A stretch of 64,000 nt of DNA from a virus. Its lineage: Duplodnaviria; Heunggongvirae; Uroviricota; Caudoviricetes. The notes under the pieces were generated by a model. That model saw only the letters and a program-made list of their open reading frames with translations, was not told the origin of the DNA and ran no database searches. Both the position numbers and the translations under genes were made by a program. Positions 2,375-12,875 of the stretch are shown here, in pieces. Every line of letters starts with the position of its first letter. Position 1 is the stretch's first letter. The stretch is taken from IMG/VR virus record IMGVR_UViG_2711768056_000005; one strand, written 5' to 3'.

Positions 2375-3567
2375 TAATCATCATCCCCGTATAGCTTGCG
2401 GGTAACTTCTTCGTCTTCCTCCTCGTCTTCGTCCAGGTCTTGTTCCAGCCATGGGTCGTTTGATACACCTTCAGTATCAACATCTCCATAACCGCCTGTA
2501 TCAACGATATCGGCGATTTCTTCCCTACGCTGCTCAATCCACAATGCGGCATCGGCGCGGCGGTTGGCGGCCCGTTCTCGCGCAACTTTGTCCAGATCTT
2601 CAAGAGAAGGACCACCGACGGCAGTTTGCCTTTCCTCATCATCGGTATTGGTCTTAGGAGCACGCAGATCGGCTTTGATTTGCTCCAGCATCAGGGGCGG
2701 CACTTTCCCGCCATGCGCCTCGATAAATTCAGCTGCTTCCAGCACTGACCAGTTATTTTCACGCTTTCGTTCGTATGCCAGCTTAACAATGCCAGCTTGC
2801 CCCATAGACAAAGCGTGCTTTTCCGCCTCCCGGCTTTCTTTTCGATAGTTATTCCGGATGCTGTAAATGGTGTTGATCAGACTGCTTATCTGCGCGGAAC
2901 AGCTGTTTAGCATGCTCGCGATACGGTATTCAGGCGGAGTACCTTCATCATCGGCTTTTTGCTGATCGCGCATTTCCTGCACCAGGCGAATACACGTATC
3001 CCTGGCGTTCTCCAGCATAAGGAGATGAGAAAGAGACTTTTCCAGAAGAGTGGTTTCCAGAACATCGGCCCCGGACCGACGCAACATAGCGCGCGCGGCC
3101 TTCCGCGCTTCAACGTTATCTATCAGGTAATCGCCAGCTTCGAATTCAAAGCGTTCACCATCATCATCCAGGGTGTCGCGTTCCAGGCGATCACGCAAGG
3201 TCCGGTGGGCACGGGTGATCACGTCATGATCATCAGAACGATCATTTATGCGCTTATTTTGGCGCTTCGCATTCTCGACTGCGACACTGACAATGGCATT
3301 AACCCTTTGTTTTTCTGCTATTTCAGCCGCAATGTGATCACCGGAATGTTGATCATTAGAGTGATCAATGATCATGCTTTTTAGTGGCTTCCTGACTGGC
3401 TTATTTGGCTTGCGGCTGTCCGCTGTCCTGGTGTCTTCTTTGAAGGCACGGAGATAACGACGTGCGGTATTAGGGTTAAGATTAAACTCGGCGGCATACT
3501 GTGCGATGGTGTAACCACCATCTCGCGCCAGGCGAGCAAAATTCTTCTTGTGATCGTCCCAGGTCAC
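2374..3567 (-). CDS. pacA: Terminase small subunit / pac-recognition protein PacA (397 aa, GTG start)
   Basis: 397-aa ORF with an N-terminal helix-turn-helix-like region and an acidic C-terminus; carries the TGATCA hexamer clusters of a P1-type pac site; RBS AAAGGAAG before the GTG. Confidence 0.85.
3216..3374. promoter_or_regulatory. pac: pac packaging site: two clusters of TGATCA hexamers (Dam GATC sites) inside pacA
   Basis: Hexamers at 3216-3221, 3227-3232 and 3239-3244 (CGATCA), then four at 3335-3340, 3350-3355, 3362-3367 and 3369-3374, about 100 bp apart. This is the 3+4 arrangement known for P1 pac. Confidence 0.7.
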
Positions 3568-5448: not shown

Positions 5449-5829
5449 CTACTCCGCAGAACCATACAATCTACGTAACGTGTCGGCGACAGAAGATACA
5501 GATATCTCGCCAGTCGCAGCGCCTACGGTAAGGTCTGCCAGTTCAGGTGAATCAAATACCTGCACCCCGTTACGGCGTAGAAATAGCAGCGCACTGTTTA
5601 GCGCGGTACGCTTATTGGCATCATTGAATATATGCCCTCTCGCTGTAGCCACCAGGTAGGTGGCGGAGACTTCGAAAAGGTCGGTGATCTCTTCGTAGGC
5701 AACTCTGGCCTGAACTCTCCCGATAATGGCCTCTGCCCTACCCGGATCAGACATTCCCGGCAAGCCGCCGTAGCGGTTTATATTCGCATCATGAAGCGCA
5801 ATAAGTTCTTCCGGTGATATATGCCTCAT
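5449..5829 (-). CDS. doc: Doc toxin (Fic-fold kinase) of the phd-doc addiction module
   Basis: 126-aa product [25 protein letters not shown]... matches P1 Doc as I know it; start overlaps the phd stop (TAATG). Confidence 0.95.
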
Positions 5830-6050
5830 TATCGGTTAACCAGTTCCTTGTTGGTGGAGTCCAGGGTGTCAAACAGGGATGCAAATTCAGCATCCAGCGC
5901 CGCTTTTTTGTAGGCTTCAAAAGTAGCCTTGCTGACAATTACTGCTGGCTCACGGCCTCTGCGGGTGATTTCAACCTCTTCCCCGGCTTCAACATTGTTG
6001 AGCACTTCAGAAAGGTTGCCGCGCGCGGTACGGAAGTTAATGGATTGCAT
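5829..6050 (-). CDS. phd: Phd antitoxin (73 aa)
   Basis: From the third codon of track ORF 5829..6056: [49 protein letters not shown]..., the P1 Phd sequence as recalled. Confidence 0.9.
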
Positions 6051-6057
6051 AAACACC

Positions 6058-6095
6058 TCGTGTACTCGTTATGTGTACACAATTATAAACTTCAC
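6058..6095 (-). promoter_or_regulatory. phd-doc promoter/operator with GTGTAC palindromes
   Basis: GTGTACTC and GTGTACAC sites at about 6060-6080 immediately upstream of phd, plus a TATAAT on the minus strand near 6084-6089; matches the known Phd/Doc autoregulatory operator architecture. Confidence 0.6.
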
Positions 6096-6122
6096 AGGCA
6101 TAAAGCACCAGCACTTTGCAGC

Positions 6123-6512
6123 TTAAATCACCGGACAATCATCAAATTCCCCACTTCGGGTATCATTAATGACATGAGTGATCACACCAAACACAGCATT
6201 ACTCCCCGTGCATCCATCGTCATCCACTGGTAACGCCTCTTTCTTCCCGGTGCTTAAATCCTCCAGGTGCTGGCGCGGATACTTCCTGTATCTTTTTATG
6301 CGATATTCACCTTCCATAGCGCAGACAAGCAGCGAACCATCAACCGGAGTAAGCGAGGAATCAACCACCAGCAAAGCACCCTGCAATATTCCCTCACGGT
6401 GATGGCTGTCTGCCGCCCGCATGAAGTAGGTCGCTGATGGATGCCTGATTAGTTGCTGATCAAGAGAAATTCTGCTTTCAACATAATCCGCCGCAGGAGA
6501 AGGGAAGCCCAT
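6123..6512 (-). CDS. humD: HumD, UmuD-like SOS mutagenesis protein (129 aa)
   Basis: 129 aa with an S24 peptidase-like C-terminal domain; LexA box 20 bp upstream of its start. Confidence 0.85.
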   Translation of the reverse strand: MGFPSPAADYVESRISLDQQLIRHPSATYFMRAADSHHREGILQGALLVVDSSLTPVDGSLLVCAMEGEYRIKRYRKYPRQHLEDLSTGKKEALPVDDDGCTGSNAVFGVITHVINDTRSGEFDDCPVI

Positions 6513-6531
6513 AGCGTTTTCACCTCAATAA

Positions 6532-6551
6532 TACTGTTCATTTATACAGTA
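6532..6551. promoter_or_regulatory. LexA (SOS) box TACTGTTCATTTATACAGTA
   Basis: CTGT-N8-ACAG palindrome in the divergent intergenic region between humD (minus) and the plus-strand operon starting at 6687. Confidence 0.8.
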
Positions 6552-6686
6552 TACATTAAAGAGACACCTTTGGTGCAAACGCGTTACGTACATCAACCAC
6601 CGCTGATGATTTTGTGCTCTTTGCTACTATTCATCACCAACGGATCAGCGTAACCTCGTTGCCAATCAGTTAATAAGGAATTAGCT

Positions 6687-7271
6687 ATGCCTAATCGCAT
6701 TCCTCTCGATCCTGTATTGCCCAAAAATTTTGACTGCACTCCTAACGAGAAACGCTCTAAAGCTCAGCTGGACGCCTGGTGGGATCATCCCTATGGGGTT
6801 ACAGAACATGACGGGAAAATTGTTGTTTATTGTCTGAATGGTGGCGCGTGGGACCGTCCATCCGTGCTTGGTTTGGCAAATAACTATGATGAAGCCTGTG
6901 AACTTGCCGAAAGACAGCAGGCTAGATGGGTGAAAACACGTTCTGAACCGACATTCATGTTTTCAAAAGAACCGCCATTTATACTGGCGAGGATGCCGCA
7001 GCGACCGGATCATCAACAAGAAATTGTTGCTGAATTTTCCTCAAGGGATGAGATGAATCTCTTCTCATTAAAGCAGGAAGAAAGGGATCGCGTCGAAGTG
7101 TCTCCAACTCTCGACCACAACCGGATGAACCTGGCCCAACTCGCCTGGTACAGCAAAGAATTAGAGATGTCTATTGCCCGGCTTGAAAACGAAAAAGCCG
7201 CTATCCAAGTCCAGCACGAAGTAGTTCTGAACCGGATTAGAGAAATGCAAAACGATAACAGGGGATTTTGA
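6687..7271 (+). CDS. Hypothetical protein (194 aa), LexA-box-proximal; lxr-like by position
   Basis: ORF with RBS AAGGAA 8 nt upstream; divergent from humD and sharing its LexA box. Confidence 0.5.
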   Translation: MPNRIPLDPVLPKNFDCTPNEKRSKAQLDAWWDHPYGVTEHDGKIVVYCLNGGAWDRPSVLGLANNYDEACELAERQQARWVKTRSEPTFMFSKEPPFILARMPQRPDHQQEIVAEFSSRDEMNLFSLKQEERDRVEVSPTLDHNRMNLAQLAWYSKELEMSIARLENEKAAIQVQHEVVLNRIREMQNDNRGF

Positions 7272-7634
7272 ATGGCTAAAATCGAGTACCATCGCGATCG
7301 CGGTAATTACCTGGAAATATACGATCATGAATCTCTTAACGATATCAACGATGCGTTATATGAATACTGTGAAAAAATGAGCATCACAGATGCACCTGAT
7401 GCATTTGTCGAGCTACCGGTATATCTCCGCGACATCTATGCAATACGGACGCCGCCCGTATCGGTAATTCACATTGGCTATGTCCGCCTGTCCATCGAAG
7501 AAGATGAAGATCGTTATATCGTGCGCCACTATACATTGGACAGAAAAGAGCTTCCCAATGAATGGAACATGAGTAATTTCTACAACGGTGAATATGGCTT
7601 AAAACCCGCTAAGAATGGCGCGGGCATTGCGTAA
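7272..7634 (+). CDS. Hypothetical protein (120 aa), translationally coupled to the 6687 ORF
   Basis: ATG immediately follows the upstream TGA (TGAATG); acidic protein. Confidence 0.5.
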   Translation: MAKIEYHRDRGNYLEIYDHESLNDINDALYEYCEKMSITDAPDAFVELPVYLRDIYAIRTPPVSVIHIGYVRLSIEEDEDRYIVRHYTLDRKELPNEWNMSNFYNGEYGLKPAKNGAGIA

Positions 7635-7645
7635 TAGCCTAACAA

Positions 7646-7885
7646 CTATTCTGTTTTCTGATATGCTGGATCGTTCCCTTTTGGCAACTGGAGGCTTAAC
7701 TGCCGGTAGTGCCGTAACCGTTCCATGAAATAGGTGCGCAGGTTCTCTGGTTGCTCGCGGGCTACCTGTTCAGCTATGACAGGTATGTTCAATCGCTCTT
7801 TGTACGCCACACCGCTGGCAGCCAGATCAACGTTAACCTTATCCTGTTCTTCCTGACTTTTAGCTGCAATATTCCAGTCGCTCAT
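7646..7885 (-). CDS. hot: Hot, homologue of DNA polymerase III theta subunit (79 aa)
   Basis: Product ...[43 protein letters not shown]... is colinear with E. coli HolE theta as recalled. Confidence 0.8.
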
Positions 7886-7887
7886 AT

Positions 7888-8154
7888 TTAAGGCTCACAT
7901 TTCCAGATGGTATTCTGAACACCCGAACCGGGCGCTAGATGAGGGTTAGCGTTCGCGCTATGCTGATATACTGCTTTAGACTTCCCATATTGCTGACAGG
8001 CTTTATCTGCGGTTTTTTGCAGGCTATCCAGGCCATACCAACCATCTGACTGTATGCTTACCTTTTCACCGTCGTTGTATTGCACCATTGCACACCCAGA
8101 TATAGCCAGTATCGTGCCGACAATAACGCTTTCCCATAAAACTCTATGCAACAT
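7888..8154 (-). CDS. Putative lipoprotein (88 aa from internal ATG)
   Basis: Signal peptide with lipobox-like LAISGC; track ORF begins at a TTG, ATG two codons in. Confidence 0.45.
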
Positions 8155-8155
8155 A

Positions 8156-8189
8156 GACAAAAATCCCCTCTGTGAATTGAGGGGATTTT
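8156..8189 (-). terminator. Rho-independent terminator-like hairpin
   Basis: AATCCCCTC-N8-GAGGGGATT stem followed by TTTTTG on the minus strand, downstream of ORF 8200..8835. Confidence 0.45.
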
Positions 8190-11988: not shown

Positions 11989-12875
11989 TACTCACCTCCT
12001 TTGATGCGAATGCCAGCAAGCCAGTTTCTTATGCCGATATATTCAGCGTTCCTGAAACCGCTTTTTACATATATAAATGGCAAGCGAAGATTGTGACCAT
12101 TGACTGCCAGGTAGTCTTTACAACCCTGTTCGGTGAAACAGCAGGTAACGAATTCATCAATATCTTTCACAGCAACGCGCCGCCATTTTTCTGGTGGCTC
12201 TCGAAAGTTTTCGTGAAGTAGTTCGAGACGACGACTTTGGCGTTTATTGGCTTCATTGCCATCTTCATCAACCCAGACAATCCGGTCATAGTCATAATCA
12301 GCATCAACAACGATTTCGCGCTTTTGATACACACAAAACATAGGGTCTGACGTTATTCGATTATCCTGTGTTCGAATATTTTCACCGATGATGCCAAACG
12401 AATCTGGTGCAGATTTTGTCTGCAACTCTTCGATGCGTTCAGCCATCGCAGCACACTCTTCAAAGTTGCTTAATGCTTTTCGCTCCCATTCAGCGCATTG
12501 TTTTTCCAGTTCTGCTATGCACTTACTTCCATCCGAGATAACACCTTCGTAATACTCACGCTGCTCGTTGAGTTTTGATTTTGCTTCCTCAAGCTCAACT
12601 CTCAGCTTCCCTACCGTTAGCGCAATATCCTCGTTCTCCTGGTCACGGCGTTTGATGTATTGCTGGTTTCTTTCCCGTTCATCCAGTAGTGCCAGCACGG
12701 TTTCTGGTCCGGCCAGAAATTTGAAGGCGTTGAGCGCATCAATATCCACACCGTAATCTTTAAGTTCCTGTTCACTTAACAAATCATCATCAGCTGGCAA
12801 CATTAACAGGCGTTCCATTGCTGGAATTGCACGTTTCGCCACCTCACGCAATGCCTGGTAATTAATTTCGCTCAC
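11988..12875 (-). CDS. Hypothetical coiled-coil protein (295 aa, GTG start)
   Basis: GTG at 12875 preceded by AAAGGAGG; overlaps the upstream stop as GTGA. Confidence 0.5.
   Translation of the reverse strand: MSEINYQALREVAKRAIPAMERLLMLPADDDLLSEQELKDYGVDIDALNAFKFLAGPETVLALLDERERNQQYIKRRDQENEDIALTVGKLRVELEEAKSKLNEQREYYEGVISDGSKCIAELEKQCAEWERKALSNFEECAAMAERIEELQTKSAPDSFGIIGENIRTQDNRITSDPMFCVYQKREIVVDADYDYDRIVWVDEDGNEANKRQSRRLELLHENFREPPEKWRRVAVKDIDEFVTCCFTEQGCKDYLAVNGHNLRLPFIYVKSGFRNAEYIGIRNWLAGIRIKGGE

Follow-up and report, generated by a model that had tools for sequence, protein, structure and literature searches.

A LexA box between humD and the divergent lxr-upf93.6 pair of a P1-like phage-plasmid, and its likely assignment to humD

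In Escherichia coli, the umuDC operon carries a high-affinity LexA box over the core promoter of a UmuD-family gene, and this promoter is released when RecA stimulates the cleavage of LexA. A LexA site next to a gene of this family is also annotated in bacteriophage P1, the genome of which was reportedly described by Lobocka and colleagues in 2004. The GenBank record of P1 (AF234172) contains a protein_bind feature described as "LexA binding site in the regulatory region of lxr and humD", and the plus-strand gene is annotated lxr, "LexA regulated function". The P7 record (AF503408) annotates the same LexA site for "regulation of humD expression" and has two genes, upf94.2 and, directly downstream of it, upf93.6. 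The name lxr was given because the P1 annotators inferred shared control, there being no other recognisable site in the 174-bp intergenic region. The searchable literature yielded neither gel-shift, ChIP or expression data for the humD-lxr box nor experimental work on the expression of lxr. The feature described here is this already known P1/P7 humD-lxr LexA site and not a new one.

The analysed stretch of 64,000 nucleotides (the window) belongs to a P1-like (Punavirus) phage-plasmid with ~97% DNA identity to P1, P7 and SJ46 by megablast. Across positions 5449-8160 the order is doc, phd and humD (all on the minus strand), the 174-bp intergenic region, two plus-strand ORFs, and hot on the minus strand. 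Two plasmids, NZ_CP098199.1 and NZ_KP453775.1, have exactly this arrangement at 100% identity. The humD gene (6123-6512, minus strand) encodes a 129-aa UmuD'-type homologue (Pfam Peptidase_S24, E=5.7e-9) and shares ~97% DNA identity with the humD annotated in P1, P7 and SJ46. Unlike umuDC, it encodes a protein of the UmuD' type, which is truncated from the outset. A umuC partner is missing from the humD locus of the window, P1 and P7, and P1 as a whole is not known to carry umuC.

The first plus-strand ORF (ORF-A, 6687-7271, 194 aa; phrog_6164, E=1e-134) is the orthologue of P1 Lxr and P7 Upf94.2, with ~97% DNA identity across humD-lxr and the same slot between humD and hot; it carries these names in the P1 and P7 annotations. 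The second (ORF-B, 7272-7634, plus strand, 120 aa; phrog_5797, E=1.2e-76) is the orthologue of P7 Upf93.6, as the megablast match to P7 (96.9% DNA identity) covers both upf94.2 and upf93.6. Shine-Dalgarno sequences precede both genes (AAGGA for lxr and GGGGA for upf93.6). At the junction between them, TGAATG at 7269-7274, the TGA stop lies directly before the ATG, so that the codons are adjacent with no overlap; the two tightly coupled plus-strand genes described in an earlier note on this DNA are thus present as claimed. Comparison with homologues at 53-68% amino-acid identity gave dN values of 0.22-0.34 with saturated dS, and dN/dS was 0.09-0.24 where computable. By these substitution patterns, both ORFs are real genes, under purifying selection relative to homologues at 53-78% identity.

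Convergent with upf93.6 lies hot (7646-7885, minus strand), a homologue of the DNA polymerase III theta subunit gene (Pfam DNA_pol3_theta, E=2e-34) that is annotated hot in P1. Just downstream of the hot stop, within the 3' end of upf93.6, the minus strand contains a hairpin (CCCGC-N10-GCGGG followed by TTTT, 7600-7630), which is likely the intrinsic terminator of hot. Upstream of hot, a 90-aa minus-strand ORF with a lipoprotein-like signal (…LAISGC…) is located at 7888-8160. It replaces upfO/upfN/upfM of the reference P1 and belongs to the humD-lxr-hot hypervariable region.

The core of this locus is closely shared with the described phages. P1 and P7 carry the identical 20-bp box at the same distances as the window, 19 nt from the humD ATG and 135 nt from the lxr ATG, and the 97% DNA identity extends over humD, the intergenic region and lxr. 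P1 lacks upf93.6, and its lxr abuts hot, whereas the window has a P7-type upf93.6 followed by hot; in P7, upf93.6 is followed by IS903 instead. The C-terminus of Lxr differs between the window and P1 over the last ~15-20 residues.

The box itself, TACTGTTCATTTATACAGTA, is located at 6532-6551 and contains a perfect CTGT-N8-ACAG core at 6534-6549. It agrees at 17/20 positions with the E. coli LexA consensus (the 20-mer TACTGTATATATATACAGTA was used here, the criterion being a palindrome with an AT-rich spacer and TA flanks). When the window was searched with this 20-mer allowing up to three mismatches, the humD-lxr box was the single match, compared to 0.00 expected from 100 shuffles. The bare 16-mer core is less discriminating: it occurs three times against 0.77 expected, a count reached by 4 of the 100 shuffles, and this count alone is a weak, marginal enrichment. 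The two other cores (12126-12141 and 31223-31238) have GC-rich spacers, CTGTTCGGTGAAACAG and CTGTCGCGGCTAACAG, and neither falls within three mismatches of the 20-mer; they are therefore probably chance matches.

The marginal core count would fit an explanation in which the humD-lxr palindrome, too, is a chance match or the site of another protein rather than a functional LexA operator. We regard this as extremely improbable, given that matches to the 20-mer never arose in the shuffled sequences, that the position before humD is conserved in eight phages, including Cyrano, and that the literature treats humD as LexA-regulated (PMC9603915). The strong LexA box that the earlier note placed between humD and the plus-strand pair is borne out by its fit to the consensus, perfect core, unique match and conservation before humD; as far as sequence can tell, the palindrome is that of a genuine E. 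coli-type LexA operator.

A motif scan of the humD-lxr intergenic region revealed neither a C1 operator nor a late-promoter (Lpa) -22 box. Elsewhere in the window, the P1 C1-repressor operator consensus was matched 12 times with up to three mismatches, compared to 0.43 expected. These matches are located at 870, 4176, 15093, 17185, 17234 and 20858, and further at 31276, 31287, 34809, 50898, 52569 and 57055, hence a P1-type immunity network across the window is confirmed.

Promoters were called with a simple sigma-70 position-weight matrix and are thus predictions rather than mapped promoters. The top minus-strand score (7.4) falls on a predicted humD promoter at 6548-6578, consisting of a -35 TTGCAC (6578-6573), a 19-nt spacer and a -10 TATACT (6553-6548). 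The -10 overlaps or abuts the box, and the predicted start (~6541) lies within it, a placement that is classical for repression. The same geometry of a predicted promoter over the box is seen in RCS47, Cyrano and the Logan contig discussed below (L024). Seven of the eight humD loci retain the TATACT hexamer (the window, P7, L014, RCS47, D6, 813R1 and Cyrano), while in the reference P1 a T-to-C change makes it TGTACT. The "predicted PhumD" of the GenBank P1 record maps elsewhere, to a poorly matching TTGTTG...CATCCT inside lxr (window 6990-7016, minus strand), which lies ~480 bp upstream of humD. This placement may be due to the TGTACT reading of the reference P1. Our prediction is that TTGCAC-19-TATACT over the LexA box is the better humD promoter candidate.

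A box over the predicted core promoter resembles the umuDC operator, although at humD the promoter is known by prediction. LexA bound at the box would block RNA polymerase at the humD core promoter until DNA is damaged, and RecA-stimulated self-cleavage of LexA would then free the promoter, as at the host umuDC operon.

The plus-strand side offers a less clear picture. The best candidate promoter for the lxr-upf93.6 unit, with the top plus-strand score of 7.25, is located at 6603-6630, 52-79 bp beyond the box. It consists of CTGATG, a 16-nt spacer and an extended -10 TGcTACTAT (6622-6630), the latter ~75 bp past the box, with a predicted start at ~6637; the box centre is thus near -95 relative to this start. 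Since a score of 7.25 is reached about twice per kb in the window, the evidence for this promoter is weak. P1, P7 and L014 share the extended -10, but L014 has a degraded -35.

The earlier note had proposed that humD and the plus-strand pair share the box, both being damage-induced. This corresponds to a truly shared operator, in which back-to-back humD and lxr promoters would overlap the box and DNA damage would co-induce humD and lxr-upf93.6, as implied by the GenBank P1 annotation of the site as regulating both genes. We consider this possible, but doubtful. The box is the sole recognisable regulatory site in the intergenic region, given the absence of a C1 operator and a -22 box, and weak plus-strand -10-like sequences, TATACA (6543-6548) and TACATT (6552-6557), overlap or abut it. 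However, the corresponding candidates (TTCACC-18-TATACA and ATAATA-18-TACATT) score only 3.6-4.2, which is background, with more than 13 such matches per kb, and TACATT reads CACATT in P1. Furthermore, the box is positioned far closer to the humD ATG than to that of lxr. The claim of sharing is thus supported in part, for humD, of which the box is the predicted operator.

Relatives of the locus allow the box to be followed with and without each neighbour. In all eight humD loci examined, it lies 16-19 nt from the humD ATG. Four of the phages (RCS47, D6, vB_EcoM-813R1 and Cyrano) have humD but no lxr, and all keep the box 16-18 nt from the humD ATG; the position is conserved even in Cyrano, a distant humD locus at 86% identity. 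Homology between lxr-bearing and lxr-lacking phages stops ~10 nt past the box.

The converse applies to Lxr-domain genes without humD, where no box was found within 400 bp upstream in ~60 loci, with L024 as the sole exception. The boxless set includes full-length enterobacterial homologues from Enterobacter (L011), Salmonella P1-like elements (L012, L013 and L025) and Klebsiella grimontii (L026), as well as short ~133-aa homologues in more than 50 loci. The alphaproteobacterial LexA motif GTTC-N7-GTTC is likewise absent upstream of Lxr homologues. Alignment of the regions upstream of humD-less lxr homologues did not reveal a shared lxr promoter, as these regions are not alignable. A LexA site is hence conserved upstream of humD orthologues (8/8) and not upstream of those of lxr. 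The box remains with humD despite the absence of lxr and is missing at humD-less lxr genes, both of which speak against a shared operator; it therefore tracks the divergent partner and not lxr.

The exception is a 27-kb Logan contig (SRR19918180; L024), which carries a near-perfect box, TACTGTATACATATACAGTA, at 3293-3312. This second, independent lxr-upf93.6 locus with a box upstream favours a shared operator, and the caveat applies that the L024 box may have been selected for placing the pair under SOS control. The box is located 20 nt from a divergent, unrelated 84-aa gene and 106 nt from the lxr homologue, and it overlies a strong minus-strand promoter (TTGACA-17-CATACT) of the 84-aa gene. 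It sits within a 36-bp palindrome, CAAACACATACTGTATACATATACAGTATGTGTTTG. The 84-aa gene, for which no Pfam match was found, fills the slot beside the lxr-upf93.6 pair that humD occupies in P1, and is possibly another SOS-controlled cargo gene.

On balance, we lean towards the box being the operator of humD, with lxr-upf93.6 most likely expressed from its own promoter and not directly occluded by LexA. Under this humD-operator reading, the pair would be an accessory cargo module in a recombination-prone slot, most likely transcribed from the weak extended -10 promoter ~75 bp beyond the operator. At that distance, the pair would therefore not be directly occluded by LexA. Any response of lxr-upf93.6 to damage would then come about indirectly, for instance if the two divergent promoters were coupled. 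That LexA acts directly on the pair is possible but unsupported, and comparative and geometric evidence somewhat disfavours direct SOS control. The accessory nature of the pair is supported by lxr being non-essential in a P1 CRISPRi screen (PMC10695390), by surveys of P1-like plasmids that count hot-lxr-humD as a hypervariable region (PMC9603915; PMC6906374), and by the absence of upf93.6 in P1. We tentatively conclude that lxr and upf93.6 do not serve structural or essential phage functions.

What the two proteins do was approached through profile and fold comparisons. Neither Lxr nor Upf93.6 matched a PADLOC, Pfam or NCBIfam family at E<=1 above curated cut-offs, and their PHROGs matches are solely to families of unknown function (phrog_6164 and phrog_5797). 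When solved structures were searched by profile, the best E was 0.059, which is not significant, and neither protein matches any solved structure. The AlphaFold2 model of Lxr (pLDDT 88) displays a conserved N-terminal domain (~aa 1-130) and a long C-terminal helix (aa 149-192). Alignment identified the invariant N-domain motifs WWDHP, CLNGGAWDR and QRPD, and protein identity to the nearest homologue clusters is 93-97%. The C-terminal helix is found in P1-like Lxr versions only, and it is tentatively assigned a probable role in dimerisation.

The Lxr domain also occurs as a stand-alone protein of ~133 aa in alpha-, beta- and gammaproteobacteria, with 50-68% identity over aa 1-126, and 904 plasmid records contain it, of which 564 are conjugative. 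We tentatively describe the N-domain as a widespread, well-conserved alpha/beta family of ~130 aa on conjugative plasmids and phage-plasmids. Members of the stand-alone family differ from P1-like Lxr in that they lack the C-terminal helix, the Upf93.6 partner, humD and the LexA box. NCBI labels them 'DNA-binding protein', a label for which no reproducible basis was found.

The genomic contexts of the domain are diverse. In Pseudomonas plasmids of ~47-64 kb (L007-L010:5790-7040), a 66-67-aa ORF, an Lxr-domain gene (135 aa) and a serine resolvase gene follow one another as what looks like a three-gene unit, within which the stop of the Lxr-domain gene overlaps the resolvase start. For those plasmids, a function connected with site-specific recombination or with the resolution of multimers is hinted at. 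The domain is also found among hypothetical genes, on an IncFIB/IncHI1B Klebsiella plasmid and on a MOBH Salmonella plasmid. In alphaproteobacteria, conjugation regions are hinted at by TraG-like, SNase-like and WGR-like sequences recognised by eye. Clustering of neighbours over 52 genome loci was naive and was swamped by spurious ORFs in high-GC genomes.

Upf93.6 belongs to a tiny enterobacterial family, with 16 homologues and 30 clusters in an exhaustive HMMER profile search. Giant BspA-type leucine-rich-repeat proteins were rejected as homologues, their matches being judged repeat-driven. The model of Upf93.6 is a small alpha/beta fold of moderate confidence (pLDDT 70), for which a structural match was sought and none obtained. 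Both partners are retained in L024 and L025, where identity is 53-68%. Lxr is found alone in P1, in L011 and L012 and in ~900 plasmids, and on a Salmonella plasmid (L021) an upf93.6 homologue lies behind an unrelated 320-aa gene. Since either gene occurs without the other, and upf93.6 is missing in P1, the pair is not obligate. Upf93.6 may be best viewed as a small, optional alpha/beta protein translated right behind Lxr.

Small, adjacent genes in a hypervariable accessory region near phd-doc could also constitute a pair of the toxin-antitoxin or abortive-infection (defence) type, which DNA damage or an attacking phage would activate. A short Lxr homologue located beside a HEPN/Toprim gene in Klebsiella phage-plasmids would agree with such a function. 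We nevertheless consider this very unlikely, as the PADLOC, Pfam and NCBIfam searches were negative, the fold searches returned nothing toxin-like, and each gene occurs without the other, Lxr alone in P1, L011, L012 and hundreds of plasmids, and Upf93.6 in L021. With low confidence, we suggest instead that Lxr and Upf93.6 act as a factor of the binding or adaptor kind, by which DNA transactions of the host or the plasmid would be modulated.

For annotation, these observations suggest placing the humD promoter under the box rather than at the PhumD annotated inside lxr. The name lxr has been copied for two decades, and the comparative evidence suggests that it may be a misnomer. The biological stakes for the phage are modest, lxr being dispensable for P1 lytic growth by CRISPRi and the region a cargo hotspot. 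It is rather unlikely, in our estimate, that Lxr and Upf93.6 are SOS-controlled in P1-like phage-plasmids and thereby represent a damage-induced effector with an uncharacterised, plasmid-wide domain. If this were true, Lxr could modulate host DNA repair or replication, or another mobile element, and would represent a new family of accessory factors carried by mobile elements. The Lxr N-domain family, which is large, strongly conserved and plasmid-borne, is the only element of the locus with wider interest.
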